A DNA stretch of 64,000 bases from an uncultured Candidatus Saccharibacteria bacterium (GTDB lineage Bacteria > Patescibacteriota > Minisyncoccia > Phycocordibacterales > Phycocordibacteraceae), in NCBI GenBank assembly GCA_964569655.1, contig CAZMTN010000001.1, positions 139,395 to 203,394 on the forward strand, read 5' to 3'. The notes under the pieces were generated by a model. It was not told where the DNA came from. It saw only the letters and a program-made list of their open reading frames with translations, and made no database searches. The position numbers and the translations under genes were made by a program. The first letter of the stretch is position 1; every line of letters begins with the position of its first letter. Below are positions 21,577-56,707 of the stretch, piece by piece.

Positions 21577-22608
21577 ATGGCGCACCAGTCTTTCTACCGC
21601 ACGCACCGCCCCCACTCGTTCAAGGAGGTCTCCGGCCAGCCCCAGGTCACTGAAGCGCTTTCGGAGCAGGTGAAGAACAAGAAGGTGGGGCATGCCTACC
21701 TTTTCGCCGGCTCCCGCGGCCTCGGGAAGACGTCGGTCGCGCGCATCTTCGCCGCGGATCTTGGCACGACCGAGCGCGACCTCTACGAGATCGATGCCGC
21801 GAGCAATAACAGCGTAGACGACATCCGCAGCCTTTCAGAGAACGTCTATACGCTCCCGTTCGAGTCCCCGTATAAGGTCTATATTCTCGACGAGGCGCAC
21901 ATGCTCTCGAAGAGCGCTTGGAACGCCTTCCTGAAGACGCTTGAGGAGCCGCCAGCGCACGCAATCTTCATCCTCGCCACGACCGAGCTCTCGAAGGTCC
22001 CGGAGACGGTCCAGTCCCGCTGCCAGGTATTCGTGTTCAAGAAGCCTGGGCGTTCGGAGCTCGCTAAGGTGGTTGCTGGCGTGGGGAAGAAGGAGGGGTA
22101 TGCGGTAGAACCCGCTGCGGCCGATCTCATCGCCCTCCTTGCAGAGGGCTCATACCGTGATGCGCTTTCCGTGCTCGAGCGCGTCTGTGCGGCATCTTCG
22201 GATAACAAGATTACGCGCGAGGAAGCGGAGAAGGCTACCGGAGCGCCCAAGCATGAGCTGGTCTCGAAGCTTGCTGCAGCGCTCTCGGAAGGGAATGCGG
22301 AGGCTGCACTCGTCGTTATCCGGAGGGCGGCTGATTCGAGCGTCGATATGCCGCTCTTTCTCTCGCTCATCCTCGACCATATCCGAGCGGTGTTGCTTGT
22401 TCGCCATGCGCCTGAACTCAGGGCGGAATTCAAGGAGGAGCTCGGCGAGATGTATGCGGATGTAGAGAAAGTGGCGGGAGACAAGGCGTCGAAGCTGAAC
22501 CATCGCATACTCCAATCCTTCCTCGAAGCTTCCGCGCGCATGCGCTACGCATCGGTCCCGTCCCTCCCGCTCGAGCTTGCCGTACTCTCGCTTTTCGGAC
22601 AGGATTAA
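21577..22608 (+). CDS. dnaX: DNA polymerase III gamma/tau subunit, short form (343 aa)
   Basis: Walker A GSRGLGKTS, DEAH-like YILDEAHML, sensor/SRC region TVQSRCQVFVF; lacks the long tau C-terminus. TATAAT lies 8 nt upstream of the ATG. Confidence 0.85.
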   Translation: MAHQSFYRTHRPHSFKEVSGQPQVTEALSEQVKNKKVGHAYLFAGSRGLGKTSVARIFAADLGTTERDLYEIDAASNNSVDDIRSLSENVYTLPFESPYKVYILDEAHMLSKSAWNAFLKTLEEPPAHAIFILATTELSKVPETVQSRCQVFVFKKPGRSELAKVVAGVGKKEGYAVEPAAADLIALLAEGSYRDALSVLERVCAASSDNKITREEAEKATGAPKHELVSKLAAALSEGNAEAALVVIRRAADSSVDMPLFLSLILDHIRAVLLVRHAPELRAEFKEELGEMYADVEKVAGDKASKLNHRILQSFLEASARMRYASVPSLPLELAVLSLFGQD

Positions 22609-22621
22609 CCCGTGCGCCCCT

Positions 22622-22695
22622 TGGGGGGTCGTCTAATGGTAGGACAGCGGCCTTTGAAGCCGTGAATCTTGGTTCGATCCCAAGCCCCCCAGCCA
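22622..22695 (+). tRNA. tRNA-Gln (anticodon TTG), U1-A72 acceptor pair, CCA encoded
   Basis: TGGGGGGTCGTCTAATGGTAGGACAGCGGCCTTTGAAGCCGTGAATCTTGGTTCGATCCCAAGCCCCCCAGCCA: anticodon loop CTTTGAA, T-arm CTTGG-TTCGATC-CCAAG, discriminator G; resembles the E. coli tRNA-Gln architecture. Confidence 0.85.
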
Positions 22696-22711
22696 GTGTT
22701 ATTGTTTCTAT

Positions 22712-23485
22712 ATGGAAATTGAGAGGCATAAAAAACAGTTTGGCAATCAGGCTGCAAACTATACAAAATATAGACGACCGTATACTCAAAAGCTTTATGA
22801 GCTGCTGTTTTCATTTTCTCCAACTGCAAAAAAGAAAATACTCGACATTGCCTGCGGCACAGGGAAATCTACTGAGCCGCTCTTTCTGGAGGGTGCAGAG
22901 GTTATAGGAATCGATCATGATCCATTAATGATTGAAGAGGCGCAGAAACAAGCATCTCTTAAATCTCTGCCAATTACATACCTTGTGGCTGACGTCGAGC
23001 ATCTTCCATTCGAAGATAAAAGTTTTGATATTGCTACTGTTGGCACTGCCTTTCATTGGTTCGTTAACGAGCCGTCTATAACTGAAATAAAGAGAGTGTT
23101 GAAAGGGAATGGTCTACTATTCGTGTTCTGGACTCTGACTACCAAAGATGTACCGGAAGAGGATTCCATCCCTGGAGATTTCCTACGATCCTTCAATTGG
23201 GACAAGGTACCTTCTGAACTTCGCAATCTCGAACACATCTCGTCTTTCCTAATAGATAATGGTTTTAAGAATGTATCTACAGCAAGGATTCCGTTTACTC
23301 ATAACGATACAGTTGAGGATCAGGTTGGGCTCATGAAAACTGCATCGTGCTACGAACTGCTCACGAAGGAAGATCAAGATCGCTTTGATAGGGAATTGTC
23401 TGTGATTCTGACCACTAAACTAGGAGATCGGCCTTACTTTACCTATGAGGAGGAAATCCAGGTCTGCTATGGGTTTAAGGGATAG
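22712..23485 (+). CDS. Class I SAM-dependent methyltransferase
   Basis: Motif I ILDIACGTGKST, later acidic motifs (IGIDHD, VADVEHLPFEDKSFD); AT-rich codon usage; TGtTATTGT -10 lies 6 nt before the ATG. Confidence 0.75.
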   Translation: MEIERHKKQFGNQAANYTKYRRPYTQKLYELLFSFSPTAKKKILDIACGTGKSTEPLFLEGAEVIGIDHDPLMIEEAQKQASLKSLPITYLVADVEHLPFEDKSFDIATVGTAFHWFVNEPSITEIKRVLKGNGLLFVFWTLTTKDVPEEDSIPGDFLRSFNWDKVPSELRNLEHISSFLIDNGFKNVSTARIPFTHNDTVEDQVGLMKTASCYELLTKEDQDRFDRELSVILTTKLGDRPYFTYEEEIQVCYGFKG

Positions 23486-23632
23486 AAAAGTTCTAACGTC
23501 GTTCAATACCCGCAGCCCGATAATGTAGAATGCGCTTATGCAACTCGAGTACGTATACGATCGAGAAAAAGATATTGAATGCCTTCTAACAAAAGGTAAG
23601 AGTTCCCCCACGGTTCATTTGTGAGGGCGGTG

Positions 23633-23941
23633 TTAGCTTCCAGCTTGCATGCCAGCAAGGAACGCAGAGGTGAGCAGGCGCTCCAACTCGGTACGGCTGG
23701 CCGGCGTCATTGAGTTGGAAAAGTCCATCATAGCAACAAGCATGGCCAACTCCTTATTGCCGCGATCGCTTTTGGCATTGTCACGACTGAAGCGACTCAG
23801 CTTCTTTGGCTCATGCGAGAAAATTTGGACGACTTTCTGCCCATCCAATTTGTCGCCGACTTTCACATCATCACCCACCCTTCGAATGCGAGGCGGGGAA
23901 CTGATTTTTCCACTTTTCGTTACTGCGAAATTGAGCTTCAT
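23633..23941 (-). CDS. Hypothetical protein (102 aa) in the AT-rich islet
   Basis: ORF of ordinary composition; the opposite-strand ORF 23649..23960 is the alternative; the strand call is weak. Confidence 0.2.
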   Translation of the reverse strand: MKLNFAVTKSGKISSPPRIRRVGDDVKVGDKLDGQKVVQIFSHEPKKLSRFSRDNAKSDRGNKELAMLVAMMDFSNSMTPASRTELERLLTSAFLAGMQAGS

Positions 23942-24189
23942 CTTCTTCCACTCGCTATAATTTCTGAAAATAGAATACTATATAAATATATCTATGTCAA
24001 TATCAAAGTTCCAACTTCGTCCCAGATGCCCAGCAAATTGACAATAATGCCTATATTAGGTATTGTTTTTTCGGAAGATTCTTAACTTCTTAATTCGCCG
24101 TAGCAAAAACATGCTCATGTTTGGGCGCATTTTTGCTACGGCGAAACGCATATCGCGCAAGCTTTGTTAGCACAGAGGAGAAAACTGCA

Positions 24190-25002
24190 ATGTCGAGCGA
24201 CAAGCAGAAGACCTTTGACGGCCAGACCGCCCAGTTTTTGGGAATCGTCGGGCAAAACATGCCACGTCTTACCAGTGAGGTAATGCAGAGATGGGTTGAA
24301 AATCCTAAAGCGCTTCAAAAGGTGCTCAGTTGGGGTCTTCAATCGGACCCCAAGGCTGCAACATCAATGGTGCAATACGAGATTGGCAACTGCATCGAGC
24401 GCAGCACGACGAAAGTCAGCGATCCGGATGGTGGGAATGTGCTCTACGACATCAACACCGAAAGTCTACCGCTGCCATACAAGCAGGCAATCTATCTGGG
24501 ACAAGGCGTTAACCCATTCAAGGCCATGCGTGTCGAAGACCTTGATTTCCGGCTTGGCGTTGAATATGCGCCAGGCAAAGTGAATCGCGCACGATGCTTG
24601 GCCCTTCGTCCGTATCTCGTGATCGAGGCGATGGATGGTGTCGGCGAAGGTTGTCACATACCGATCCGTTCTATTGACTACTGGGCCGACCACGCCAAGG
24701 CACCAATCGTACCGAAGAGCGGTGGTGCGCTGACCATATTGGAAGCGGACAAAATCAACATGTCCGAACACTTGTGGGACCTTGAGATCGGGTATGTAAA
24801 TGGGGCATTGGAATATATCTCCGATCGCTTTACTTTTGGCTTGTCGATTGAGGACCAGCAATACGGATGGTTGGTTCATCTTCATTGGCTCACAGATGGC
24901 GGCGCGGCCCTTAATACTTTCCGTTTCCAGTTGCGGAAAGAGTTCCTAGTCAACGAATACAGGGAGGCGAAATTGGAGCCTCCAACTGAATTGCTGAAGT
25001 AG
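24190..25002 (+). CDS. Hypothetical protein (270 aa)
   Basis: Start taken at MSSDKQKTF, which has a GGAGAAAA Shine-Dalgarno; the ORF-track start at 24121 lacks one. A terminator follows. Confidence 0.5.
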   Translation: MSSDKQKTFDGQTAQFLGIVGQNMPRLTSEVMQRWVENPKALQKVLSWGLQSDPKAATSMVQYEIGNCIERSTTKVSDPDGGNVLYDINTESLPLPYKQAIYLGQGVNPFKAMRVEDLDFRLGVEYAPGKVNRARCLALRPYLVIEAMDGVGEGCHIPIRSIDYWADHAKAPIVPKSGGALTILEADKINMSEHLWDLEIGYVNGALEYISDRFTFGLSIEDQQYGWLVHLHWLTDGGAALNTFRFQLRKEFLVNEYREAKLEPPTELLK

Positions 25003-25009
25003 ACAATCT

Positions 25010-25046
25010 GGGCGGTCACCTTAACGGGTGGCCGCCTATTTTTTTG
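25010..25046 (+). terminator. Rho-independent terminator (GGCGGTCACC ... GGTGGCCGCC, then TATTTTTTT)
   Basis: 10-bp stem with one mismatch, then a 7-T run. Confidence 0.5.
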
Positions 25047-25095
25047 CTCGAAAAGGTTCCAACTTCATACCAGACACCCAGCCAGCAGGTATACT

Positions 25096-25431
25096 TTGCA
25101 TATGCTAGACAAGGCACGACAGATTACTTTGAACGCACTTCCTGTTGCGCTCATGATTGGTCTGATACCGCTGGTCCTGAATGATTACTACCTGGCGGGG
25201 ATATACATCCTGATCGCAATCGCTGCCCTCGCCATTAGGCGGGAGCGGAATGATCTTGTCGCGTACCTGTTCGGACTCATCATCATTACCATCTCGGAGT
25301 ATTTCTTCATCAGCACGGGAGTCGAGACGTTTGCCCGCAACAGCCTCTTCGGCGTCATGCCGCTATGGCTCCCGTTCCTCTGGGCCTATGCTTTCGTAGT
25401 CATAAAGCGATCGCTCCGCATCCTCAGCTAG
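25096..25431 (+). CDS. Hypothetical integral membrane protein (3-4 TM helices)
   Basis: Hydrophobic segments LNALPVALMIGLIPLVL, AGIYILIAIAALAI, LVAYLFGLIIITI, LFGVMPLWLPFLWAYAFVVI. Confidence 0.45.
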   Translation: MHMLDKARQITLNALPVALMIGLIPLVLNDYYLAGIYILIAIAALAIRRERNDLVAYLFGLIIITISEYFFISTGVETFARNSLFGVMPLWLPFLWAYAFVVIKRSLRILS

Positions 25432-25468
25432 AGAGGTTCGAACCCCACGCGATGCTAAGCTACTTACT

Positions 25469-26044
25469 ATGAAATGGATACTGATCACCGCAGCCGCTGC
25501 TATCGCTGTCATCGCAGGCTTCTTCGCCTTGAATGCGTACATATACGAGGAGAAGCAGGCCACAGCAGTCAAGGATTATAAGGATGCAGAGTATCTGATC
25601 GAGGGGCAGCGCATACGCCTTTCGGACGGGATAAGCGAGAGCGAGCCGGTGCCAGGATCTGCCGCAAGGATCGTGACCCGCTATTTCGGCAATGAGCTCA
25701 CGGCCGATATCAACAGCGATGGAAGGGAGGACGTGGTGTTCCTCCTGACTCAGGAGCAGGGAGGCACGGGCGTTTTCTACTACGTAGTCGCGGCACTCAA
25801 TACAGAGCGAGGATATATCGGATCGGACGGGTACTTCCTTGGCGATCGCATAGCGCCCCAGTCTATCGACCTAAGCCAGAACCCGCGGCACGTAGACGTG
25901 ATCGTGGTGAATTACGCTGACCGCAACGCTGATGAACCGATGACCGCAGCCCCATCCGTAGGAAAGAGCGTATACCTGAAGATCGACCCCGCATTCATGC
26001 AGTGGGCGATAGTCGAGCCTGATTTCGAGGGAGAATCAAGGTAG
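25469..26044 (+). CDS. Hypothetical secreted/membrane-anchored protein
   Basis: N-terminal signal-anchor MKWILITAAAAIAVIAGFFAL; no recognised motifs. Confidence 0.45.
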   Translation: MKWILITAAAAIAVIAGFFALNAYIYEEKQATAVKDYKDAEYLIEGQRIRLSDGISESEPVPGSAARIVTRYFGNELTADINSDGREDVVFLLTQEQGGTGVFYYVVAALNTERGYIGSDGYFLGDRIAPQSIDLSQNPRHVDVIVVNYADRNADEPMTAAPSVGKSVYLKIDPAFMQWAIVEPDFEGESR

Positions 26045-30431: not shown

Positions 30432-30770
30432 ATGAACCTGCTCATCCACTGGCTTACCGCGACCGCTGCCATCCTCGTCGCCGCATATCTCATTCCTGGG
30501 GTGGCGGTGACGCTCGTGGGCGCGCTCGTCTTCGCGGTGGTGCTGGGCCTCGTGAACGTATTCGTGCGTCCGGTCCTCTTCCTGCTCACGCTCCCGGTCA
30601 CCATCCTCACGCTCGGCCTGTTCTCTCTGGTGCTGAACGCACTCCTCGTCTGGCTCGCGGGATCCGTCGTGCCGGGCGTCTCTATCGAAGGCTTCTGGAC
30701 CGCTTTCATCTTCTCAATACTCCTCGCGCTCGTGAACGCGCTCTTCAATCTCCTGCGCAAGGACGACTAG
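30432..30770 (+). CDS. Phage holin family 4-like (PF04020-type) membrane protein
   Basis: 112 aa, four TM segments with the typical LIHWLxxAxAILVAAYLIPGVxV N-terminus. Confidence 0.5.
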   Translation: MNLLIHWLTATAAILVAAYLIPGVAVTLVGALVFAVVLGLVNVFVRPVLFLLTLPVTILTLGLFSLVLNALLVWLAGSVVPGVSIEGFWTAFIFSILLALVNALFNLLRKDD

Positions 30771-31278: not shown

Positions 31279-31303
31279 AACAGGCGCCCGTGGGGCGCCT
31301 GTT
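31279..31303. terminator. Hairpin AACAGGCGCCC-GTG-GGGCGCCTGTT; the T-tract lies on the minus strand, so it mainly terminates 31310..31642
   Basis: 11-bp stem. Confidence 0.5.
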
Positions 31304-31309: not shown

Positions 31310-31642
31310 TTAAGGAATCGTCGCCCGCATCGACCTCGCCCCTGCGCGCTCGGCCTCATACTGGAGATGCTCCTTGATCTCAGCCAGCTCGCGACGTCGG
31401 TAGAGATTGCGGAAGTACCGGTCTCGAAGCCAGGGCGGGAAGTACATGCCCGCGCCCATATCGATCTGGAGGGAATGATGATTCCCATCCTCGGGAATGT
31501 GATTCCAATACCATGCCGCACGGACATAGGTGAGCGGCACGACGATGATGCTCAGATACGCGATGGTGAGCGAGAGCTTGATGCGCTCGAGCTTGCGGCG
31601 CTTGAAGCGCCTTATGCGGGCCAGTAATCTAAGGAACTTCAT
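31310..31642 (-). CDS. Hypothetical membrane protein (110 aa)
   Basis: Basic N-terminus then TM IAYLSIIVVPL; terminator downstream. Confidence 0.4.
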   Translation of the reverse strand: MKFLRLLARIRRFKRRKLERIKLSLTIAYLSIIVVPLTYVRAAWYWNHIPEDGNHHSLQIDMGAGMYFPPWLRDRYFRNLYRRRELAEIKEHLQYEAERAGARSMRATIP

Positions 31643-31739: not shown

Positions 31740-31745
31740 TATACT
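31740..31745 (+). promoter_or_regulatory. TATACT -10-like hexamer 7 nt upstream of the ATG at 31753 (leaderless pattern)
   Basis: Read directly; no Shine-Dalgarno sequence present. Confidence 0.3.
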
Positions 31746-31752: not shown

Positions 31753-34485
31753 ATGGAGGGACTAGAGCGACCGCTTCAGACGCCTGAAGAGGAACTGCAG
31801 TATCTGCGCGCCCAAGTGGAAGCGAAAGAGCGCGAGCTTTTAGCTATGAAGCAGGAACAGCCGCGGGAAGCGGTGGTGCATGAGCGTATCCTGCATCACC
31901 GGGAGAACGCGCCGCTGGCTCCCGAGTACAAGATCCCGGAGGCCGAAGCGAACACGCTCGCCTTGAACCTCGATCCCGACGATAACGACGAGACCATCAA
32001 CGAGCTCCGCTCCATCATGGAGGAGAAAGGCATCAAGAACGCGTTCCTGGTGCTCGAGAAGCTCAAGAACCCGCACATGGAGGACGATTTCCACCGCTTC
32101 CTCGTGCAGTACATAAAGAACGGCATGCAGGTACCGGGCTATGAGAAGCAGCCGGCCTGGAAGGCGCTTCACATGACCCTCTACGAAATCTCCCTGCCCG
32201 AGGCGAAGAATCAGGAGGAGCGGGCGAAGTCGCTGAAGGAGCTCATCTCCGCTATGGAGCAGTTCTACTCAGGCATGCTCTCAGTGGGGAGCGCGGATCG
32301 GAACGAACCGACATACTTCTCCATGGAGCTCGCGGTGCCGGTGAATTCGGCCCAGCTTTCGTTCTTCGTCGCCGTGCCGAACCAGAAGAAGGACCTCTTC
32401 GAGAAGCAGCTCCTCGGGGTGTTCCCGAATGCCGAGCTCACGCCCCAGCCGAACGATTACAACGTCTTCGTCGAGGACGGCATGGCGAGCGCTGCAGTAG
32501 CTACCCTTGAGAGGCGCCCTGCGCTCCCGCTCAAGGACTACCAGGATTTCGACTACGATCCGCTGAATTCCATCCTGAACGCCTTCGCGAAGATCGAGCA
32601 CGAAGGGGAGGGCGCCGCGCTCCAGATCATCCTCGAACCTGCCGGCAACCGCTACACCGAGCATTACCGCACGATCCTCGAAGCGCTCCGGAAGGGCGAG
32701 CGCCGCGATCAGGCGCTCTCGACGCCGGAGACGCTGCTCGGCTTTGCCGCGCGGGACATCAGCCGCACCTTCTTCGGCGGTACCCAGCAGAAGCGCGACG
32801 AGCATGAGGACTTCCAGCGCCGCATCGAGGCGAACAAGACGGACATCGAGCAGGTGGAGAAGAAGGTGTCTACGCCGATCGTGAACGCCACGATCCGCCT
32901 TGTCGTCTCCTCCGCGGACGCGTATCGCGCGCAGGCCGGACTCTCGGACCTCGAAGCGTCCTTCAATCAATTCGATAACACGGCAGGCAACAGGCTCAAG
33001 TTCGAGCACCCGGCGCCGCACCGCGCTGCCGGCGTCTTCCGCGATTTCACTTTCCGCGTGCCGGACACGAAGCCCGTACCGCTCTCGCTTCGCGAAGTGA
33101 CCACGCTCTACCACTTCCCGCCGAACGGCATCGAATCGGCGCCGCAGCTCAAGCAATCCCGCTTCACGGGCGCTCCCGCTCCGCTTGGGCTCCCGGCATC
33201 GGGCACGTTCCTCGGGACCAACAATTTCCGCGGCAAGAGCACGCAGGCGTATCTGGCGCTTGAGGACCGCATGCGCCATCTCTATATCATCGGACAGACT
33301 GGCACCGGTAAGTCCGTGTTCATGCGCAACCTGGCCATTCAGGACATCAAGGACGGCAAGGGCGTCTGCTTCATCGATCCGCACGGCAACGACATCCTCG
33401 ACATCCTCGCGGCTGTCCCGCCGGAGCGCTATGAGGACGTCATCTACTTCGACCCGGCTGAGGTGACCCGCCCGTTCGGATTGAACCTTCTCGAATACGA
33501 TGCGTCGAAGCCGGAGCAGAAGACGTTCATCGTGAACGAGATCCTCGCCATCTTCCGCCGCCTCTACGGCGACGTTCCGGAGAGCATGGGACCGATGTTC
33601 GAGCAGTACTTCCGTAACTCGACGCAGCTCGTCATGGAGGATCCGGACTCCGGCTCCACCATCCTCGATATCCCGCGCGTGCTCGCGAACAAGGCATTCC
33701 GCGATATGAAGCTCAGCAAATGCAAGAATCCGGTGGTCACCCAGTTCTGGCGGGAGATCGCGACGCAGGCGGGCGGGGAGGCGTCTCTTGAGAACATCGT
33801 CCCGTACATCACGAACAAGTTCGACGACTTCACCGCGAACGACTTCATGCGTCCGATCGTCGGGCAGCAGCATTCTTCCTTCAATTTCCGCGACGTCATC
33901 GACGGCAACAAGATCCTGCTCGTGAACCTCTCGAAAGGCCGACTCGGGGAACGGAACGCGAACCTCCTCGGCCTCATCCTGGTCGGGAAGCTCTTCATGG
34001 CCGCGCTCTCCCGCGCGGACAACCCGCGCGCCGAGTACCCGCCGTTCTTCCTCTATATCGACGAGTTCCAGAACATAACCACCGACTCCATCCCGGGCAT
34101 CCTGTCTGAGGCTCGCAAGTACAAGCTCTCGCTCACCATCGCGCATCAGTTCCTGTCCCAGGTGGATGAGAAAATCCGGAACGCCGTGTTCGGCAACGTC
34201 GGCAGCATGGCGGTGTTCCGCGTCGGCGAGGAGGACGGCGAATACTTCGCGAAGCAGTTCGCGCCGGTATTCTCCGCGCTCGACTTCGTGAACATCGAGA
34301 ACTACAACGCGTACCTCCGCATCCTCTCGAAGGGCGTGCCGCAGAAGCCGTTCAACGTGAAGACCCCGCCGCCGATAGCGGGGAATCCGAATCAGGTCGA
34401 TGACCTCCGCCAGCTCTCGTACCTCACGTACGGCAGGGACCGTCAACAGGTGGAGGATATGATTCGCGCGCGGTACCTGTCATAA
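31753..34485 (+). CDS. FtsK/HerA/VirD4-superfamily P-loop ATPase (type IV coupling-protein-like C-terminal half) with a ~480-aa N-terminal domain of unknown function
   Basis: 910 aa. Walker A HLYIIGQTGTGKSVF, Walker B FFLYIDEFQNI, then LSLTIAHQFLSQV, which resembles the IxQSxSQL region of TraG/VirD4/TrwB coupling proteins. No N-terminal TM helices; N-terminal coiled coil. Confidence 0.7.
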   Translation: MEGLERPLQTPEEELQYLRAQVEAKERELLAMKQEQPREAVVHERILHHRENAPLAPEYKIPEAEANTLALNLDPDDNDETINELRSIMEEKGIKNAFLVLEKLKNPHMEDDFHRFLVQYIKNGMQVPGYEKQPAWKALHMTLYEISLPEAKNQEERAKSLKELISAMEQFYSGMLSVGSADRNEPTYFSMELAVPVNSAQLSFFVAVPNQKKDLFEKQLLGVFPNAELTPQPNDYNVFVEDGMASAAVATLERRPALPLKDYQDFDYDPLNSILNAFAKIEHEGEGAALQIILEPAGNRYTEHYRTILEALRKGERRDQALSTPETLLGFAARDISRTFFGGTQQKRDEHEDFQRRIEANKTDIEQVEKKVSTPIVNATIRLVVSSADAYRAQAGLSDLEASFNQFDNTAGNRLKFEHPAPHRAAGVFRDFTFRVPDTKPVPLSLREVTTLYHFPPNGIESAPQLKQSRFTGAPAPLGLPASGTFLGTNNFRGKSTQAYLALEDRMRHLYIIGQTGTGKSVFMRNLAIQDIKDGKGVCFIDPHGNDILDILAAVPPERYEDVIYFDPAEVTRPFGLNLLEYDASKPEQKTFIVNEILAIFRRLYGDVPESMGPMFEQYFRNSTQLVMEDPDSGSTILDIPRVLANKAFRDMKLSKCKNPVVTQFWREIATQAGGEASLENIVPYITNKFDDFTANDFMRPIVGQQHSSFNFRDVIDGNKILLVNLSKGRLGERNANLLGLILVGKLFMAALSRADNPRAEYPPFFLYIDEFQNITTDSIPGILSEARKYKLSLTIAHQFLSQVDEKIRNAVFGNVGSMAVFRVGEEDGEYFAKQFAPVFSALDFVNIENYNAYLRILSKGVPQKPFNVKTPPPIAGNPNQVDDLRQLSYLTYGRDRQQVEDMIRARYLS

Positions 34486-34486
34486 T
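34478..34486 (+). promoter_or_regulatory. TGtCATAAT extended -10, 8 nt upstream of the ATG at 34495
   Basis: Read directly; overlaps the stop of the upstream ATPase gene. Confidence 0.3.
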
Positions 34487-34494
34487 TCGTCTAT

Positions 34495-36441
34495 ATGCAA
34501 GAAGACCCTCCGCGCATAGTCCCGCCAGCATCAGAAGAGAAGCGTCCAAAGACGTTCGAGGAAGTGTGGGGCGAGGCATCCCCGACCCATCGCGAGCCTA
34601 CGTTCTCGACGGGCGCAGCGACAACATTCAACGATTCCTTCCGTTCACTCGGCGAGGTACTGCAGCCCGTGGAAGGCGAGGACAGCGTAGGTGTCTCCCG
34701 CGTAGAGACACCGGAGTGGAAGCAGAAGCTGAAGGGCGCTGTCGAGTCGCTGCAGGCGATCTCAAGCGCAGCGATAGAAGGGACGAAGAAGGGCGCAAAG
34801 GAGGCATACCGCTACGTGTCAGAGCGAGGCGCAGCGCTTACCGAGAAGCTCAAGAGCTACATTCCGGGATTCAAGGCAGAAGAAGATGCGCCAGAGAGCG
34901 CAGAACCCAAGGAGGGAAGTCCGAGATTCGAGAAGCTGAAGGCGTTCCTTAAGAGCAGCGGCGAAGGATACGCGGCAAAGCTCAAGGAGCTCGGCATTAA
35001 GGCGGGCTCAGGCGTCTTGGAGCTGGGTAAGAGGTATAACGCACTTCCGTTCAAGGTGAAGCTCGGGATTGGAGCTGCGCTGCTCAGCGGATCGGCTGCG
35101 GTCATCTTCACCGGAGGAGCCGCTTCGGCGCTCGCTGGCCCGCTGTCAGCATTGGCTCTTACGCGGCGCATCGCTGCCGCAGCCGGCGGCGCAGTGACGG
35201 CCGATGCATTCCTCGAGAAAAAGGGCGTCACATCGAAAAAGGCTCGCTGGCTCATCATCGGCGCCGGAGCGGTCGGCGGCGTTACGCTCATGGAGAGCCT
35301 GCAATACCTCAACTATTCCGGAAGCACGAGCGACGGAAGCGCTCCGGAGGCGGCCAAGCCGAGCGCAACGGACGCCAAATTCAATCCGAAGGTATCGGAT
35401 GCGATGTCTTTCCCGGGAGACGCTCCGAAGCCGGCTGCTTACTCATTCGGCGCCGAGAAGTCGTTCGGTGTCGGCGACATTAGCGCTAAGGACGTCTCGG
35501 TAGCAGATAGCTACCCTGATGCTCCCCATTTCAATGAGAGCGGCTTCCCTAAGGAGCCGGTAACGGCAAGCATCCATGAGCCCGGGCAGGGCGCGAATCA
35601 GATGTTCCTCGAGCTCAAGGTGCAGCTGCGCGAGCTCTACAAGAATGACATTGCGACCGCGCCTCCTGAGATTCAGGAAATTGTAAAGTCACGGGTGCAC
35701 GATCTTTCTGCAAAGTACGGATTCCTCGAGAACGGGAAGTTCCCGATCATGCATGACGGAGATCAGATCCAGGTGAACGGGAAGGGAGAGCTAGTATTTA
35801 CCCGCGCAGGAGGCACGCCGGAGATTCTGAAGCCATTTCAGGCACCGTCTCCTCAGATGCAGGCGCCCGTCTTCGAAGGCCCGATGCAGGAAGCGCAGGT
35901 TCCGATTCCGGCGGAAGCGGAGGCAGCAGTACCTGCGGATCCATACACCACTTATATCCCCGAGGGGGGTGCGACTGAATTAACTTCGCAGCCTCAGGCA
36001 ATCGCTCCGGGGGATTCGCTGCCTGCATATCAGCCATCCGGAGCGGTTTCAGAACCTGGACCGGCACAGAGCTACCCGCCTTCGGACACGCTTCCGGCAT
36101 ACGAGGGTGGAGCTGGTGCGGCGGCACCTGCTGCCTCCACCATTGAGGCATTCAAGCTCAGCGATGGCACTGTCGTTGATCCTGCCACGCCGCATCTCTA
36201 CGAGACGAAGGAGGGCAGTTTCCTCTATGGCGGAGAAGACGGAAGTGCGGATCAGGTAGCGCAGCGCGAAGCCGTACGTACCGGGAAGCCGGTCTTCGTG
36301 AATCATTCCTATAACAACGCGCTCGGCGAGCGCGTGGTCATGGTGCATGAGTTCGCACCGGGTAATACGTTACCGTCCTTGCACAATGACCCGTCGTTCG
36401 ACCTTGAACCGAAGCGCGGATTTATCAAGCTGAAGCCGTAG
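34495..36441 (+). CDS. Large hypothetical protein (648 aa): Pro/Ala-rich, with a central hydrophobic Gly/Ala-rich segment
   Basis: Hydrophobic stretch LGIGAALLSGSAAVIFTGGAASALAGPLSALAL...WLIIGAGAVGGVTLM; Pro-rich low-complexity runs; conserved-looking C-terminal ~100 aa; no known motifs. Confidence 0.5.
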   Translation: MQEDPPRIVPPASEEKRPKTFEEVWGEASPTHREPTFSTGAATTFNDSFRSLGEVLQPVEGEDSVGVSRVETPEWKQKLKGAVESLQAISSAAIEGTKKGAKEAYRYVSERGAALTEKLKSYIPGFKAEEDAPESAEPKEGSPRFEKLKAFLKSSGEGYAAKLKELGIKAGSGVLELGKRYNALPFKVKLGIGAALLSGSAAVIFTGGAASALAGPLSALALTRRIAAAAGGAVTADAFLEKKGVTSKKARWLIIGAGAVGGVTLMESLQYLNYSGSTSDGSAPEAAKPSATDAKFNPKVSDAMSFPGDAPKPAAYSFGAEKSFGVGDISAKDVSVADSYPDAPHFNESGFPKEPVTASIHEPGQGANQMFLELKVQLRELYKNDIATAPPEIQEIVKSRVHDLSAKYGFLENGKFPIMHDGDQIQVNGKGELVFTRAGGTPEILKPFQAPSPQMQAPVFEGPMQEAQVPIPAEAEAAVPADPYTTYIPEGGATELTSQPQAIAPGDSLPAYQPSGAVSEPGPAQSYPPSDTLPAYEGGAGAAAPAASTIEAFKLSDGTVVDPATPHLYETKEGSFLYGGEDGSADQVAQREAVRTGKPVFVNHSYNNALGERVVMVHEFAPGNTLPSLHNDPSFDLEPKRGFIKLKP

Positions 36442-36455: not shown

Positions 36456-36758
36456 ATGAATCCAGACGAAATCCAGAAGAAGGTAGCGGACGACCTCGGC
36501 ATCGGCGACCTTTCTGACGAGGAGCAGAAAAAGATAATCGCCGACTTCGGCGGCGTGGCGCTCCAGGCCTCCACGGTAGCCGTCATCGAGGCGCTCCCAG
36601 CGGAAAGGCGCAACGAATTCGCGCAGCTCCTCCAGGCGGGGGACGAGGAGGCCGTCGCTACCTTCCTCGGCGCGAATTTGCCGGACCACGAGAACGTGGC
36701 GCGTCAAGCGGTCGCAGCCGAGATCCAGCGCTTCAAGGACTTCCAGAAGACGGTATAA
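36456..36758 (+). CDS. Hypothetical small acidic protein (100 aa)
   Basis: TACACT -10-like hexamer 7 nt upstream of the ATG. Confidence 0.4.
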   Translation: MNPDEIQKKVADDLGIGDLSDEEQKKIIADFGGVALQASTVAVIEALPAERRNEFAQLLQAGDEEAVATFLGANLPDHENVARQAVAAEIQRFKDFQKTV

Positions 36759-36768: not shown

Positions 36769-37266
36769 ATGACAATCACCAACACCGGTATCGCCGTCGC
36801 GCTCGCTGTAGCGGTCGCGCTCGGGTTCCTGTTCTTCGGTCCGTCACTGTTCGCGCCGCTAAGCAATGCAGCTATCCCTAATGAAATGATCATGCCAGAG
36901 AACAACGCAAACCCGGTCGCTACCATCCCTGATGCTACCGAGCTTCAGATCAATGACGTGCAGCCAGGCACCGGCGCTACCGCCGAGGCCGGAGACACGG
37001 TAACGGTGGAGTACGTGGGCGCGCTCACCAACGGCAGCGTCTTCGACGCTTCGGAGAATCACGGCCAGCCGTTCACCTTTACGCTCGGCGCGGGAAGTGT
37101 CATCCAGGGATGGGAGCAGGGTATTGTCGGCATGAAGGAGGGAGGCCAGCGCGTCCTCATCATCCCCCCGCAGCTCGGCTATGGTCCTACCGGCAATGGT
37201 CCGATCCCGGGGAACGCTACGCTTCTCTTCCAGGTGCAGCTCGTGAGCGTGCAGAAAGGGAACTAG
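36769..37266 (+). CDS. FKBP-type peptidyl-prolyl cis-trans isomerase with N-terminal membrane anchor
   Basis: FKBP core (GDTVTVEYVGALTNGSVFDAS ... GAGSVIQGWEQGIVGMKEGGQRVLIIPPQLGYG). TATAAT lies 9 nt upstream of the ATG. Confidence 0.8.
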   Translation: MTITNTGIAVALAVAVALGFLFFGPSLFAPLSNAAIPNEMIMPENNANPVATIPDATELQINDVQPGTGATAEAGDTVTVEYVGALTNGSVFDASENHGQPFTFTLGAGSVIQGWEQGIVGMKEGGQRVLIIPPQLGYGPTGNGPIPGNATLLFQVQLVSVQKGN

Positions 37267-50980: not shown

Positions 50981-51001
50981 ATAGTGTATATTGTTCCGCA
51001 C

Positions 51002-51074
51002 GGGCCGTTAGCTCAGTTGGTAGAGCATCTCATTTGCAATGAGAGGGTCGCAGGTTCGAATCCTGTACGGTCCA
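51002..51074 (+). tRNA. tRNA-Ala (anticodon TGC)
   Basis: GGGCCGTTAGCTCAGTTGGTAGAGCATCTCATTTGCAATGAGAGGGTCGCAGGTTCGAATCCTGTACGGTCCA folds with the G3-U70-type acceptor, anticodon loop TTTGCAA and T-loop TTCGAAT. Confidence 0.85.
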
Positions 51075-52551
51075 CCCCGGTAGACAGTTCAGTCGAAAAT
51101 ACTGATTCCGTCGCAAAGATAAAGGAAGTTTCAGAAGTTTTAAATTCTTTCCCGTCAAAGACGACGCCAGAAGGAAATTGGAACTTTTGAAGCTTAGTCT
51201 TCGTTTCGTGCCTAGCCTGCAGCCAGACCTTCCCTGGCGCAGAAATATAGTCACGTGCAAGCGTGAGGGCTCCTGCAACGTCTACTCGCCCATGCTTCAA
51301 GGAGACCTGCTTTTCATACAGGGCAAAGGTTTCTTTCTCCATACGAGCAAGCTGGCTCTTAAGAACGTCATCGCTGACTACACCACTGAGGTTCTTGTCG
51401 ATAAGAACGGCCTGACGGTCCTGAAGCCCAGTAAGGCGAACCTCAATTTCTTCTAGGGCTTTCTGCTGGCCTTTAGTAGCTTCAGCAAACTTCTTACGCA
51501 CCAAACTCTCAAGCTTGTTCAGATGTTCCTTGCTGGGTGCAAAGCGGTTCATAAAGTCCGCAAAGTCCTGGTGCACGATCTCGCTACGCATATCGCTTTT
51601 CTTGACTCCTACGAAGCGATAGTAGGGATACTTACCTTTAGCGAAACTACCGGTAAGCTTCTTTCCTTCAGAGTTTTCAATGAAACGACGCAAAGGGAAG
51701 TCCGGATTATCACGCTTATAAACTGAACTCTTCTTACCCTTCTTGAGAAGTACGCACTGTACCTGATTAAACAACTCCACAGAGACGATCGGTTCAAAGC
51801 TGCCCTTATTTGTCTCACCAAATTTCTCGATAACCCCCATATATACCTTGTTCGTCAGCATCTTGTAGAAGTACGATCGTGCCGGGGACTTCCCATTTTT
51901 AAGACACAGTCCGCGATCGCTCATCATCTTCCAAACGCCGTCAATTGGGTGCAGTGAGGTAGCTACAGTCTCAAAAGACTGAAGAACTAGGGCACTCATA
52001 TCTCCGAGCTCAAGGTTCGGCTTCCCACCTACTACGCCATTCCTAAAGCCAACAGGTGCAGGCCAGACATAACGACCTTCCCGCACTGCATCCTTCATAC
52101 CGCCTCCACAGCGTTCACTACGCATGTCGTTATCAAACTGCGCTACGTTAGCGAGAGTGTTCTCAATAAACTTACCTGCAGCTGTATCGTCAAATTGCTC
52201 CGTTGCAGAAAGAAGTTCAATCTTATACCGCTTAAGCAATGCCCGGATTGTTGCGTGATCTTCTGTACTACGTGCAAGGCGATCAACCTTGTACACAAGC
52301 ACAGCACTGATATTGTTTTTCCTGATCGTGCAGAACTTGAGCATCTCTTGCAATTGAGTCCGGTTGGCGGTCTTTGCGCTCTCACCGGCTTCTACGAATA
52401 CGTGAATCACATCAAAGCCCTTTCGTACCGCAAACTCACGACAAATGCGCTCTTGAGAAACCAGACTATTTCCCTCATCAGCCTGGGCACTGGTTGAGAC
52501 ACGGACGTAAACTACGGCACGCGGCTTACTACTCCCATGAACATTGTTCAT
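51013..52551 (-). CDS. Large serine recombinase (resolvase-type catalytic domain, recombinase domain and Zn-ribbon/coiled-coil region)
   Basis: N-terminal AVVYVRVSTSAQ (catalytic Ser), VLVYKVDRLARS, recombinase-domain and C-terminal features; 512 aa. The last ~20 codons are read from the antisense of tRNA-Ala. Confidence 0.8.
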   Translation of the reverse strand: MNNVHGSSKPRAVVYVRVSTSAQADEGNSLVSQERICREFAVRKGFDVIHVFVEAGESAKTANRTQLQEMLKFCTIRKNNISAVLVYKVDRLARSTEDHATIRALLKRYKIELLSATEQFDDTAAGKFIENTLANVAQFDNDMRSERCGGGMKDAVREGRYVWPAPVGFRNGVVGGKPNLELGDMSALVLQSFETVATSLHPIDGVWKMMSDRGLCLKNGKSPARSYFYKMLTNKVYMGVIEKFGETNKGSFEPIVSVELFNQVQCVLLKKGKKSSVYKRDNPDFPLRRFIENSEGKKLTGSFAKGKYPYYRFVGVKKSDMRSEIVHQDFADFMNRFAPSKEHLNKLESLVRKKFAEATKGQQKALEEIEVRLTGLQDRQAVLIDKNLSGVVSDDVLKSQLARMEKETFALYEKQVSLKHGRVDVAGALTLARDYISAPGKVWLQARHETKTKLQKFQFPSGVVFDGKEFKTSETSFIFATESVFSTELSTGVDRTGFEPATLSLQMRCSTN

Positions 52552-53211
52552 AAGTATTTCCTTTATTCTTGTACATCCTAACTAGTTGTCCCGCGTAGCG
52601 GGCTCCTGGGGCTTATTTAGCTTCCCTCAAGTATGCCTCCACAAGGATTTCGGCGAGATATGTCAGCGCGGCATCTGCAGGGCGCTCCAAATTATTACTG
52701 CTCACGAGAGTTCGTGTGTCTGATCCAACCTTCGTATTAAGCGTAGCGGACCCTTCTTTCTGTCAGGTTCCTATCCGTAACGGTAGTAGGAAAACCAAAC
52801 AACGGTACGCTGCGGCCAAAGCAAATATGGAATACGGCGGCGAGAGGTGAGACACCTTAGCTGGTAAGCAGGGGGAATAAAACGCCACCCTGGTTACCTG
52901 CCGGTGCTTATTACAGCTGACAATAGCATAAAAAGTTGTGAAATTCAATCCGATTATGTGGAAGCATTTTGTGTCGACCTTGGGAAGGACTATACTGAGA
53001 TTGTTCTACAACTGAATAAAAGGCCCGCGAGGGTCAGGACCTAACCCGCCAGCTTCGGCTATCGGTATGGTCTAAAAAAGTCCTGCAAAGACACAATGAA
53101 CCCGTCATGGGGGAGTCTTTGCAGGCCTAGAGGGAAACTTCTAGCCGGCCCGTCCGGGACCCGTGGCGGGTTCATTGTGCGCCCGTCCGGATTACTCGTC
53201 ATGAGAGTCCT
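52552..53211. ncRNA. 660-bp non-coding, highly structured region (candidate large ncRNA or recombination/regulatory region); unclassified
   Basis: No ORF over 60 aa in a gene-dense genome. Hairpin CTGGTAAGCAGGG...CCCTGGTTACC at ~52880..52920. Interleaved inverted repeats at 53080..53195: GTCCTGCAAAGAC/GTCTTTGCAGGCC and CACAATGAACCCG/CGGGTTCATTGTG, a pseudoknot-type topology; direct repeats GCCCGTCCGG occur twice. Confidence 0.25.
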
Positions 53212-53505
53212 ATGACTAAGGCACTCCGTATTTCGGTTATCGTACTCGCTATTGTTCTTGCTGCGTTCGTTGCTCTCGTTCTTGCGTACATGGTTACGCC
53301 ACCGTTCTTTATTTCATTCGGGCAGCACTACATTGGTGCACCAGATATATTCTCCGTATCTGATTTCTATCGTTGTGACCCTAACGGTGCAGACGACTGC
53401 GTACTCACAAGAGAATCTCTCTTTGCGGCGGTTGCGAACGACCCGCACATCGCAAACTGGTGGCCAGTTAACGGATCATTCATCCTGCCGGAGGAATATG
53501 ACTAA
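53212..53505 (+). CDS. Hypothetical membrane-anchored protein (97 aa)
   Basis: TM ISVIVLAIVLAAFVALVLAYMV; overlaps the next gene as ATGACTAA (translational coupling). Confidence 0.4.
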   Translation: MTKALRISVIVLAIVLAAFVALVLAYMVTPPFFISFGQHYIGAPDIFSVSDFYRCDPNGADDCVLTRESLFAAVANDPHIANWWPVNGSFILPEEYD

Positions 53506-53875
53506 GCGCATTGGGGATGAAGGGTGGCTGGATGAGCCACTAGCTAATCTCGACCTAAGCGAGCAAGTATCGCCTACGAATCCCGATGAAGAGCGCTATG
53601 GGGCAGTAATGGATGGCTTCGAACTGCCTAACATCACCCACGACAAGGAAGTCAGTCCACTCGGCACGTTCGTAATCCGTGCACTTATCGCAGTAGTTAC
53701 AGTCTTCTCCTTGTGGGCAGTGTTCGTCGGCCTCACTACATCCGATGGTGAAGGGTACACACCCACCGGTGCCGGATGCTGTGTGTACTGCTCAGTCGGT
53801 AAAGCATGCGGTAACACCTGCATCGAGCGAAGTGACGCGTGTCATGTTGGGTCAGGCTGCGCCTGCGACCAATGA
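53498..53875 (+). CDS. Hypothetical single-pass membrane protein with C-terminal Cys-rich knot (9 Cys in 33 aa)
   Basis: TM FVIRALIAVVTVFSLWAVFVGL, then GAGCCVYCSVGKACGNTCIERSDACHVGSGCACDQ. Start at the internal Met at 53498; the ORF-track start 53252 overlaps the previous gene. Confidence 0.4.
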   Translation: MTKRIGDEGWLDEPLANLDLSEQVSPTNPDEERYGAVMDGFELPNITHDKEVSPLGTFVIRALIAVVTVFSLWAVFVGLTTSDGEGYTPTGAGCCVYCSVGKACGNTCIERSDACHVGSGCACDQ

Positions 53876-54736: not shown

Positions 54737-54753
54737 CTCTAAGCTCAACAACC

Positions 54754-55338: not shown

Positions 55339-55352
55339 GACTCGCAATTCAT

Positions 55353-56108: not shown

Positions 56109-56200
56109 TTGGCTGAACACGCAGAATTGTCTCCAACGACTGAATCTCCTTGCAAAAGGAGTTCCAAAACTCCATCCCAAGGTCCACATTCGTTCACTTG

Positions 56201-56703: not shown

Positions 56704-56707
56704 TTCC

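Follow-up and report, generated by a model that had tools for sequence, protein, structure and literature searches.

A 64-kb stretch of DNA from an uncultured Candidatus Saccharibacteria bacterium (hereafter, the window) carries a chromosomal gene for a 910-aa ATPase with the motifs of type IV coupling proteins (T4CPs), followed directly by a gene for a 648-aa Pro-rich protein. What does such a motor do at a locus free of type IV secretion system (T4SS) genes, and does it depend on the protein encoded next to it?

Gene layout and genomic context

Both open reading frames are real, as ORF calling and identical proteins in GenBank-derived records (P0001 and P0121) agree (Table 1). They are separated by 9 nt and are followed on the same strand by genes for a DUF5663 protein and for an FKBP-type isomerase, the final member of the cluster, whose N-terminal hydrophobic anchor is TGIAVALAVAVALGFLFFG. 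Upstream, a Phage_holin_4_2 gene is the usual neighbour of the ATPase in this clade (54 of 80 loci, often 55–67 nt from the ATPase start).

The hexamer ahead of the ATPase gene, TATACT, suggests a leaderless-type promoter. For the partner gene, the preliminary description of this locus had proposed a -10 element of its own, and this stands as regards position: CATAAT overlaps the TAA stop codon of the ATPase gene (34483–34485), and TANNNT hexamers occur at the same upstream placement in 15 of the window's 34 genes (background 4.5%). A simple sigma-70 consensus scan for promoters and terminators detected no full promoter at this site and returned nothing useful on the + strand.

As had been described, VirB4, VirB6, VirB8–11 and relaxase genes are absent from the window. 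All of its named genes are housekeeping genes, including those for DnaX, ParB, TopA, DprA and UvrABC. The protein at 8681–9649, previously called VirB2-like, indeed matches the T4SS_pilin family (PF18895; 35.5 bits, cut-off 26.6). The suggested link between this gene and the ATPase gene, 22 kb away, was not borne out: in none of the related loci does a pilin homologue lie close to the ATPase.

Table 1. Coordinates of the features of the ATPase locus within the window
Feature	Position	Strand	Basis
Phage_holin_4_2 membrane protein, four-TM	30432..30770	+	PF04020, E 6.7e-30
TATACT, -10-like hexamer	31740..31745	+	sequence; 8-13 nt upstream of ATPase start codon
ATPase gene (910 aa, DUF8128/T4CP-like)	31753..34485	+	ORF
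N-terminal module, aa 1-~135, long helix and small helical bundle	31753..32157	+	HMM, predicted structures
DUF8128 core, aa ~136-480, VirB4 N-terminal-domain-like alpha/beta fold (predicted)	32158..33192	+	predicted fold
Coupling-protein-type (TrwB/VirD4/TraD) RecA ATPase domain	33193..34482	+	Pfam, NCBIfam, PDB-sequence matches
Walker A, GQTGTGKS, aa 514-521	33292..33315	+	motif
Walker B, LYIDEFQN, aa 767-774	34051..34074	+	motif
EARKY...LTIAHQFLSQV, aa 786-804, Arg/Lys pair and Gln motif	34108..34164	+	HMMER alignment
CATAAT, -10-like hexamer (putative)	34481..34486	+	sequence; 9-14 nt before partner ATG
Partner gene (648 aa, fast-evolving, predicted membrane/surface protein)	34495..36441	+	ORF
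Partner aa 1-186, hypervariable charged region rich in Glu, Lys and Ala, predicted cytoplasmic	34495..35052	+	composition, flanking charges
Partner aa 187-268, Gly/Ala-rich hydrophobic block	35053..35298	+	hydropathy, charge
Partner domain A, aa 362-440, conserved ~80-aa island	35578..35814	+	HMM
Partner domain C, aa 551-635, conserved ~85-aa island	36145..36399	+	HMM
DUF5663 small acidic soluble protein	36456..36758	+	PF18908, E 1.2e-4
Membrane-anchored FKBP-type peptidyl-prolyl isomerase	36769..37266	+	PF00254, E 1.7e-32

Sequence features of the ATPase engine

The Walker A, Walker B and LTIAHQFLSQV (aa 794–804) motifs were located in the C-terminal half of the protein as previously noted. 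Across 41 diverse relatives, G514, G517, G519 and K520 of Walker A and D770 and E771 of Walker B are invariant, as are E786, R788, K789, Q799 and Q803; the Arg/Lys pair and Gln motif of aa 786–804 are aligned by HMMER with GRKAGLRVVAGLQSTSQL of TrwB. A helical insertion is predicted between the Walker motifs (aa ~575–717, pLDDT 44–77).

Among Pfam models, TraG-D_C matched the ATPase at 22.6 bits (cut-off 22) and DUF87 also exceeded its cut-off. NCBIfam contributed matches to TraD- and VirD4-like models; SXT_TraD reached an E-value of 5e-12, yet stayed far under its whole-protein cut-off. TrwB_AAD_bind (PF10412), the model for the all-alpha domain inserted into T4CP engines, matched 36 of the 41 family members, the 910-aa protein itself being unmatched at E<=0.01. 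When the family profile was searched against PDB sequences, TrwB (5.8e-8) and DotL (2.4e-6) were recovered. Judged by sequence, the C-terminal half is a coupling-protein ATPase of the TrwB/VirD4/TraD type, as had been proposed, and not FtsK.

FtsK/SpoIIIE was rejected on several grounds: PF01580 scored 17.7 bits (cut-off 24) and covered only the P-loop (aa 505–527), its profile matched just two of the 41 relatives, and FtsK chains were absent from the PDB sequence matches at E<=1. Neither a gamma/KOPS-binding domain nor a multi-TM FtsK N-terminus was found in the ATPase. HerA was likewise rejected. DUF87, the HerA central domain, matches the Walker A region and covers only positions 9–62 of the 220-position profile, and PDB HerA sequences score E 0.008 or worse; no HAS-barrel and no NurA partner or nuclease neighbour were seen, the predicted fold of the N domain resembling VirB4 rather than a barrel. 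Both translocases belong to the same ASCE P-loop superfamily as the ATPase, and the structural matches include HerA hexamers, but each of these matches either stays close to the P-loop or falls short of the matches to VirB4 and T4CPs.

Architecture of the N-terminal half

The front of the protein had been described as a ~480-aa domain of unknown nature that starts with a coiled coil. A long helix is indeed predicted at its start (aa 11–34; another spans aa 63–122 in the models), while the fold of the region proved not to be unknown. An HMM of aa 1–~135 matched 12 of 31 directly upstream ORFs in TM-type loci (E 1e-14 to 1e-5) and just 14 of 807 neighbour ORFs overall, and this module is a fused copy of a separate ~135-aa protein that is encoded upstream in other lineages. 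The following DUF8128 core (aa ~136–480) is predicted to share the fold of the VirB4 N-terminal domain, with low TM-scores (0.31–0.38) and in a full-length model of mediocre quality (pLDDT 65).

Sequence searches gave no comparable signal of VirB4. No Pfam VirB4 family was found in the 41 members, TIGR00929 matched the P-loop of the ATPase only (E 0.008; 14 bits, cut-off 643), and hhalign against the single sequence of A. fabrum VirB4 aligned 38 P-loop columns at a probability of 9%. Alignment of the family profile with the single A. fabrum VirD4 sequence by hhalign was uninformative.

The reported lack of a TM anchor holds for the ATPase, whose highest 19-residue hydropathy (1.53) falls on an internal core helix (aa 735–753), as a trait of its subfamily only; most relatives, ~800 aa long, carry one N-terminal TM helix. 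In most lineages, the usual state is such a helix together with a ~135-aa helical protein encoded before the ATPase. In the present lineage, the small upstream protein has been fused on and the TM helix lost. No anchor was recognised in TM-less ATPases that occur without the partner.

Family and distribution

PF26449 (DUF8128) and PF01935 are precomputed Pfam hits on P0001, which is 100% identical to the ATPase, and PF26449 is also recorded for nearly all of the 240 homologues listed. Identity to the ATPase over the full length is 67–83% for 120 listed homologues, and a family search returned 5,564 clusters (50% identity) at E<1e-30. The ATPase is a strongly conserved member of the Patescibacteria-wide family DUF8128, in which an N-terminal domain of predicted VirB4 type precedes a RecA engine of VirD4/TrwB type whose motifs are intact. 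Far from being the rare stand-alone protein previously supposed, it belongs to a near-universal core gene family of Patescibacteria, one surveyed as ‘T4CP homologues’ (PMC12102498) if the two families are indeed the same, which they may not be.

Within 7–10 kb of the gene in ~160 related loci, T4SS genes and relaxases are absent and the neighbours are housekeeping genes; DnaX lies in the neighbourhood of 12 TM-type loci. On viral contigs, the matches listed are all distant, engine-only relatives at 29–34% identity. Relatives of 1.3–2.0 kaa bear long Pro/Ala-rich C-terminal tails, which were considered as fused partners and rejected, as they contain no domain A or C.

The partner protein and its cassette

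The composition given for the partner was confirmed, with its Gly/Ala-rich block and its Pro/Ala-rich linkers (19% Pro in aa 441–550). Searches of the protein, of the domain A and C consensus sequences and of the alignments against Pfam, NCBIfam and PDB sequences yielded nothing credible; a match to 8fjf ‘H10’ (E 5e-4 over 40 residues) was treated as chance. A word-index search with the partner retrieved just two database matches, and its conservation was shown via gene position and HMMs built from neighbouring ORFs. An ORF of 446–1267 aa follows the ATPase stop in 51 related loci, mostly after a gap of 0–17 nt. Domain A was matched in 41 and domain C in 38 of these 51 ORFs, an HMM of aa 130–200 matched 22, and one of aa 1–130 found no other partner protein. 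The hydrophobic block may be read as a TM hairpin (aa 187–223) followed by a loop of positive charge and the third TM segment (aa 252–268), a topology predicted from the positive-inside rule.

Conservation of the partner beside the ATPase, expected from the preliminary description, holds for these 51 loci but not throughout: the partner is missing in ~9 loci of the same clade and in the examined 53%-identical orthologues, and therefore cannot be a general membrane dock. DUF5663 and the partner travel as a two-gene cassette. The nine partner-less loci examined also lack DUF5663; in these nine clade members, the ATPase is followed by FKBP. By HMM, 49 of 81 loci have the DUF5663 gene downstream of the ATPase, and 64 of 80 have FKBP there. 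The examined distant orthologues and TM-type relatives have unrelated genes downstream of the ATPase. The two genes are paired optionally and within a single clade only, and the partner is an accessory that the ATPase does not require.

Comparison with known systems and possible function

T4CPs (TrwB of R388, VirD4, TraD, DotL) are the best sequence matches of the ATPase among Pfam, NCBIfam and PDB entries and share its RecA engine and its Walker A and B, Arg/Lys and Gln motifs; the predicted helical insertion between the Walker motifs may be a further common feature. In contrast to them, the ATPase would have a ~345-aa VirB4-like domain and a 135-aa helical module at its front in place of a two-helix membrane domain, and it has no TM segment, where its relatives have one. 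Its gene is chromosomal, has a housekeeping character and is not accompanied by relaxase or T4SS genes. VirB4 proteins (TrwK of R388; A. tumefaciens VirB4) resemble it in the predicted fold of the N-terminal domain, whereas its engine is closer in sequence to coupling proteins and its gene is not beside those of VirB3, VirB6 or VirB8.

VirB10 and TonB consist of a cytoplasmic N-terminus, a TM segment, a Pro-rich spacer and a C-terminal domain. The partner is predicted to have a similar layout, from a cytoplasmic N-terminus through membrane segment(s) and a Pro-rich spacer to small C-terminal globular domains, but it has no sequence or profile similarity to either protein and three predicted TM segments instead of one. 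Moreover, it has no outer membrane to reach, because the organism is expected to be monoderm (PMC12102498).

We favour, with a probability of about 60%, the reading that the ATPase is a VirB4/VirD4 hybrid ring motor that translocates a polymer at the membrane, probably independently of conjugation, with the partner as its likely dock in this clade. Like its relatives TrwB and VirB4, it would oligomerise into a ring on the cytoplasmic side of the membrane, where the VirB4-like domain would dock onto membrane partners and ATP would be spent to push or pull a polymer, either DNA or an unfolded protein, through a channel in the membrane. The likely dock in this clade would be the N-terminal, cytoplasmic region of the partner encoded next to it, a protein with three predicted TM segments whose Pro-rich, fast-evolving exterior and two small domains would lie on the cell surface, the exterior being folded by the membrane-anchored FKBP. 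The role is apparently not conjugation, and the action is possibly also independent of a T4SS encoded elsewhere.

Could the ATPase instead be a plain VirD4-equivalent coupling protein that recruits substrates for a Patescibacteria T4SS encoded elsewhere, typically near dnaA, with the pilin-like gene at 8681–9649 in the same dispersed system? The engine matches T4CP families, a T4SS_pilin-family gene lies inside the window, coupling-protein genes are often distant from virB4, and the Patescibacteria T4SS locus has no recognisable coupling protein (PMC12102498; PMC10633639). The survey of orphan Patescibacteria ‘T4CP homologues’ (Quinonero-Coronel et al. 2025, PMC12102498), which bear the same NCBI names as relatives of the ATPase and may not be the same family, describes them as near-universal and usually far from virB4, and suggests exaptation; bona fide VirB4 is a different gene, reported near dnaA. 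These homologues, which may not be DUF8128 proteins, occur in 2,918 genomes, at about two per genome, against 2,417 genomes for VirB4, and the Saccharibacteria homologue is dispensable while T4SS genes are essential (PMC12102498). In the survey, the N-terminal domain is not described, nor are the two partners, the small one that is fused here and the variable one encoded downstream. Together with the wider spread and dispensability, the lack of T4SS, pilin and relaxase genes within 7–10 kb in ~160 loci, the lack of a relaxase in the 64-kb window and a VirB4-like N domain that occurs in no described coupling protein argue against this role, which we consider rather unlikely.

It is also unlikely, to a somewhat greater degree, that the two proteins make up a two-component device dedicated to export or anchoring, with the ATPase exporting, inserting or energising the Pro-rich surface protein. 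Such a device would fit the tight spacing of the genes (9 nt here), the predicted partner topology with its Pro-rich spacers, the membrane-anchored FKBP in the same cluster and a partner that diverges very fast, as exposed surface proteins typically do, beside an ATPase of 62–83% identity. The ATPase, however, is far more widespread than the partner, it is followed directly by FKBP in the nine clade members without the cassette and by unrelated genes in the examined distant orthologues and TM-type relatives, and the topology and localisation of the partner are predicted only.

TrwB-type engines translocate DNA, and a core, single-locus, highly conserved gene amid housekeeping genes, with DNA-metabolism genes in the window, DnaX in TM-type loci and a weak NCBIfam match to the archaeal DNA-translocating ATPase CedD, might serve FtsK-like segregation at division or DNA uptake for nucleotide salvage in reduced genomes. 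This role is improbable given an FtsK_SpoIIIE match that is below cut-off and confined to the P-loop, with only 2 of 41 members matched, the absence of FtsK chains from the PDB sequence matches, the missing gamma/KOPS-binding domain, a synteny with DNA-metabolism genes that may be inherited rather than functional, and a Saccharibacteria competence that depends on ComEC (PMC12857230).

Beyond the hybrid ring motor favoured here, we tentatively consider that DUF8128 ATPases form a third, Patescibacteria-centred branch of the VirB4/VirD4 ATPases, with a VirB4 N-domain on a VirD4-like engine, either an intermediate or an ancient chimera, serving as a core conjugation-independent translocase with lineage-specific surface partners; this is possible, if on balance doubtful. 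If true, the translocase would move, for example, DNA or proteins across the episymbiont membrane. The hybrid architecture is also relevant to the divergence of the VirB4 and VirD4 ATPase families. The predicted VirB4-type docking half, the small conserved companion fused here and the rapidly evolving, probable surface protein of one clade offer testable handles. Patescibacteria account for a large share of bacterial diversity and live on other cells, and little in them can be recognised as machinery for host exchange; the survey of T4CP homologues, which may not be the DUF8128 family, suggests a wider spread than that of the T4SS itself (PMC12102498). A motor ATPase conserved like a housekeeping gene is a strong candidate for a core envelope function in these organisms.

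Classification and Architecture of the ATPase

Both ORFs of the preliminary description, encoding a 910-aa ATPase and a 648-aa partner, are present, and public records hold proteins identical to each (P0001 and P0121, respectively); alignment with 25 full-length relatives confirms the ATPase start codon. The precomputed Pfam match of the ATPase homologs is PF26449 (DUF8128), a family of which a literature search found no mention; their database names include "TraM recognition domain-containing protein" and "DUF87 domain-containing protein". The best 120 homologs are 67–83% identical over the full length, and their named sources are Patescibacteria (Paceibacteria/Parcubacteria, Kaiserbacteria, and Minisyncoccia). 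When one genome per species was scanned with a sequence pattern, at least 586 relatives came to light; HMMER, run exhaustively on representatives clustered at 50% identity, yielded 21,091 matches with E ≤ 1e-3 and 5,564 with E ≤ 1e-30.

The motifs GQTGTGKS (aa 514–521), LYIDEFQN (aa 767–774), and LTIAHQFLSQV (aa 794–804) were correctly recognized from the start. With the window protein alone, Pfam gave 29.5 bits for DUF87/HerA on the P-loop region and 22.6 bits, barely over the cut-off, for TraG-D_C; FtsK_SpoIIIE stayed below cut-off and covered the P-loop only, and the NCBIfam TraD and VirD4-like models were all far under their whole-protein cut-offs. Among 41 diverse relatives (30–50% identical to the query), Pfam matches were obtained for TrwB_AAD_bind in 36, DUF87 in 34, TraG-D_C in 32, T4SS-DNA_transf in 20, FtsK_SpoIIIE in two, and any VirB4 family in none. 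A profile of these relatives, run against all PDB sequences, retrieved TrwB (5.8e-8), DotL (2.4e-6), and then HerA (0.008), with no VirB4 or FtsK chain at E ≤ 1. The family segment "ILSEARKYrLnLilahQyiaQL" aligns on TrwB "ALTKGRKAGLRVVAGLQSTSQL", and G514, G517, G519, K520, D770, E771, R788, K789, Q799, and Q803 are invariant in the 41 relatives; all catalytic motifs characteristic of TrwB are present. Judged by sequence, the engine is that of a coupling protein.

The N-terminal half had been described as unknown, and sequence methods indeed see no relationship to VirB4 (Pfam on the 41 relatives; profile alignment), but the fold of its model resembles the VirB4 N domain. The full-length AlphaFold model was mediocre (pLDDT 65); its best Foldseek matches were TrwK/VirB4 chains over ~920 columns (E 2e-9), with HerA (4e-7) and the coupling proteins Cag-beta and DotL (2.6e-6) ranking lower. 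To separate the halves, residues 61–485 were modeled alone (deeper alignment, n = 61, 32–79% identity to the query), which gave a pLDDT of 84.7 and a pTM of 0.83. The first 14 matches of this model were all TrwK/VirB4 (E 1e-6 to 2e-4), the next lying at 0.019. Because the TM-scores were modest (0.31–0.38) and the sequence methods silent, we limit the claim to a VirB4-N-domain-like fold that is probably homologous. In the predicted structures, the ATPase has the two-domain plan of VirB4, but its engine scores as VirD4/TrwB; we regard this classification and architecture as very likely.

A Small Companion in Place of a Membrane Helix

No transmembrane segment was found in the window ATPase; the missing anchor is true of this protein, but not of most of its distant relatives. 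Among the 150 best representatives, the ~910–930-aa forms begin with the "PEEEL.YLR" helix of the query, and more distant relatives, e.g., a Wolfebacteria protein, are ~780–860 aa long and 30–45% identical; most of the latter (TM-type) begin with a single strongly hydrophobic helix running straight into the DUF8128 core. In 80 metagenomic loci taken with the TM-type alignment as query, some of which proved to encode ~920-aa forms, an ORF of ~125–140 aa with no Pfam match commonly ends 2–19 nt before the ATPase start or overlaps it. An HMM of residues 1–~140 from 236 long-form ATPases matched 12 of 31 upstream ORFs (E 1e-14 to 1e-5) and only 14 of 807 neighbor ORFs overall. These matches identify the first 135 residues of the window ATPase as a small protein, encoded by its own gene in other lineages, that has been fused to the ATPase here and has taken the place of the membrane helix.

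The Partner Gene and Its Neighborhood

In line with the preliminary description, the partner has a Gly/Ala-rich hydrophobic block (aa 187–268), Pro/Ala-rich linkers, and no recognizable domain (Pfam, NCBIfam, PDB). A database search with it returned itself and one relative (77% identity); the ATPase search returned thousands. In 51 related loci, an ORF of 446–1267 aa mostly starts 0–17 nt after the ATPase stop, and only 22 of 50 ORFs in the partner position gave a BLASTP match to the window partner (40–290 residues, 22–44% identity). By HMM, two islands, domains A and C, are conserved among the 51 partner ORFs; aa 1–130 are unique to the window protein. Hydropathy and charge suggest a cytoplasmic region (aa 1–186), a hairpin (187–223), a positive loop, and a third TM segment (252–268), followed by an exterior of Ser/Pro/Ala-rich spacers bearing domains A and C. 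Some TM-anchored distant relatives of the ATPase (P0175–P0200) reach 1.3–2.0 kaa, with a 450–1200-aa Pro/Ala-rich low-complexity tail fused after the engine; it has PPIGAPPV repeats and the conserved end ...GEV(Y/F)VDE(R/T)GNV(I/V)(I/V)GE, and domains A and C are absent from it.

FKBP lies downstream of the ATPase in 64 of 80 related loci, a Phage_holin_4_2 membrane protein upstream in 54 of 80, and DUF5663 downstream in 49 of 81; because the loci compared are phylogenetically clustered, common descent accounts for part of these counts. In nine same-clade loci, whose ATPases are 62–68% identical, the gene order is holin–ATPase–FKBP–TGT, and partner and DUF5663 are both absent. Downstream of two orthologs with 53% identity lie, respectively, a 53-aa ORF, DUF5663, and NDK, and a MacAB-like efflux system; TM-type loci carry DnaX, NDK, thioredoxin reductase, and similar genes in this position. 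The proposed pairing is thus kept in 51 loci but absent from the nine same-clade loci and both 53% orthologs. Given this presence, and its absence from the nine and from more distant loci, the partner is a real yet facultative, clade-restricted companion. Partner and DUF5663 travel as a cassette.

Coordinates of the features discussed
Feature	Position	Strand	Remarks
ATPase (DUF8128)	31753–34485	+	910 aa
Partner	34495–36441	+	648 aa; gap to ATPase 9 nt
Partner domain A	aa 362–440		HMM in 41/51 partner ORFs
Partner domain C	aa 551–635		HMM in 38/51 partner ORFs
DUF5663	36456–36758		gap to partner 14 nt
FKBP isomerase	36769–37266		N-terminal membrane anchor; gap to DUF5663 10 nt
-10-like hexamers	31740–31745; 34481–34486; upstream of 36456, 36769, 21577, 26797, 40469, 42587		from sequence
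110-aa ORF	31310–31642	-	
Bidirectional hairpin	~31283–31303		
Pilin-like gene	8681–9649	+	322 aa
tRNA-Trp	8536–8607		
Low-G+C island	~51000–62000		G+C 0.44–0.54 vs. ~0.61
tRNA-Ala	51002–51076		
Serine recombinase	51013–52551	-	large
Second low-G+C stretch	~22600–26000		G+C 0.49–0.52
tRNA-Gln	22622–22695		
Methyltransferase-like ORF	22712–23485		
dnaX, window	21577–22608		
dnaX, related loci	L002 4971–6014; TM-type loci, e.g., L097 7234–8331 and L150 10553–12175		12 TM-type loci

Genomic Context

The rest of the window consists of housekeeping genes (ClpB, MiaA, peroxiredoxin, ParB, RelA/SpoT, TopA, DprA, SerRS, Dus, DnaX, TspO, TGT, UvrA, UvrB, UvrC, a histidine kinase with response regulator, and Ddl), and the G+C around the ATPase and partner genes (0.60–0.61) equals that of the window bulk. 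In this housekeeping context, the ATPase is under strong purifying selection. In distant lineages, the clamp-loader gene dnaX lies no more than a few kb from the ATPase: it precedes the ATPase in the long-form clade and immediately follows it in TM-type loci. In other loci (L085, L126), the ATPase comes after the secY–adk–map end of the ribosomal protein cluster; these arrangements may be inherited synteny or a functional clue.

The hexamer proposed as a -10 element of the partner, CATAAT, does overlap the TAA stop codon of the ATPase, and -10-like boxes also precede the ATPase, DUF5663, and FKBP genes. A -10-like TANNNT hexamer begins 9–16 nt before the start codon in 15 of 34 confident window genes (4.5% background), and Shine–Dalgarno-like motifs in only 10 of 34; such patterns suggest that leaderless-type transcription starts are widespread in the source organism.

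Between VIT1 and the ATPase lies a 110-aa ORF with high third-position G+C and no homolog in related loci, separated from VIT1 by a bidirectional hairpin. In relatives, holin_4_2 is mostly the immediate neighbor of the ATPase, so both VIT1 and the 110-aa ORF resemble local insertions. Starting at tRNA-Ala, the low-G+C island encodes a serine recombinase and some twelve ORFs that share one strand, hardly any of which has a PHROG or Pfam name (one is esterase/lipase-like); the island probably represents a mobile element or prophage, of unknown type, that has integrated here. The second low-G+C stretch, which directly follows tRNA-Gln between DnaX and the ATPase region, holds unnamed ORFs besides a methyltransferase-like one; it may be another, small island that has integrated.

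Relation to the T4SS and Proposed Role

As first described, VirB4, VirB6, VirB8–11, and relaxase genes were not found in the 64-kb window, and no T4SS component occurs near the ATPase in any fetched related locus. The pilin-like gene does match T4SS_pilin (PF18895), but its suggested link to the ATPase found no support: a pilin homolog lies near the ATPase in no fetched locus, and in the window the gene is 22 kb away, beyond housekeeping genes on both strands. Its product combines a signal peptide, the PF18895 domain (35.5 bits), a Gly-rich linker, and a Cys-rich C-terminal domain, and the gene adjoins tRNA-Trp.

T4CP homologs have been reported in 2,918 of 3,035 Patescibacteria genomes (5,713 proteins), only 148 of them near virB4, with VirB4 in 2,417 genomes; the T4CP homolog of Southlakia epibionticum is not essential, and its T4SS genes are (PMC12102498). 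Exaptation of these homologs was raised by the authors (PMC12102498; cf. PMC10633639, PMC12857230), and none of the three papers describes the ATPase N-terminal domain. Shared database names suggest that many of the published homologs belong to the DUF8128 family.

We consider the ATPase to be, with a probability of roughly 0.5–0.6, a conjugation-independent translocase. By analogy with TrwB and VirB4, it would form a ring-shaped oligomer at the inner membrane face and perform ATP-driven movement of a polymer. The VirB4 N domain docks on VirB3 and VirB8, and the corresponding domain of the ATPase would likewise dock on membrane partners; that the partner N-terminus provides this dock for the TM-less ATPase of the window clade is a tentative and rather doubtful proposal. 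Among the rival readings, a remote coupling protein of a T4SS would suit the TrwB-type engine and fits poorly with loci free of T4SS components. A dedicated exporter of the neighboring surface protein would agree with the 51 paired loci and sits badly with a facultative partner. An FtsK-like or DNA-uptake motor is disfavored, as Pfam counts, PDB-profile matches, and invariant motifs point to TrwB and not to clustering with FtsK proper.

Databases already list the DUF8128 family, both as a DUF and under nonspecific T4SS names, and its distribution as an orphan has been published. We found no prior description of its probable VirB4-like identity, and hence of the VirB4/VirD4 hybrid plan, of the fused 135-aa companion in place of the TM helix, or of the makeup of the hypervariable partner/DUF5663 cassette and its facultative character. 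These results would gain in interest if the DUF8128 family were indeed a T4SS-independent core machine of Patescibacteria.
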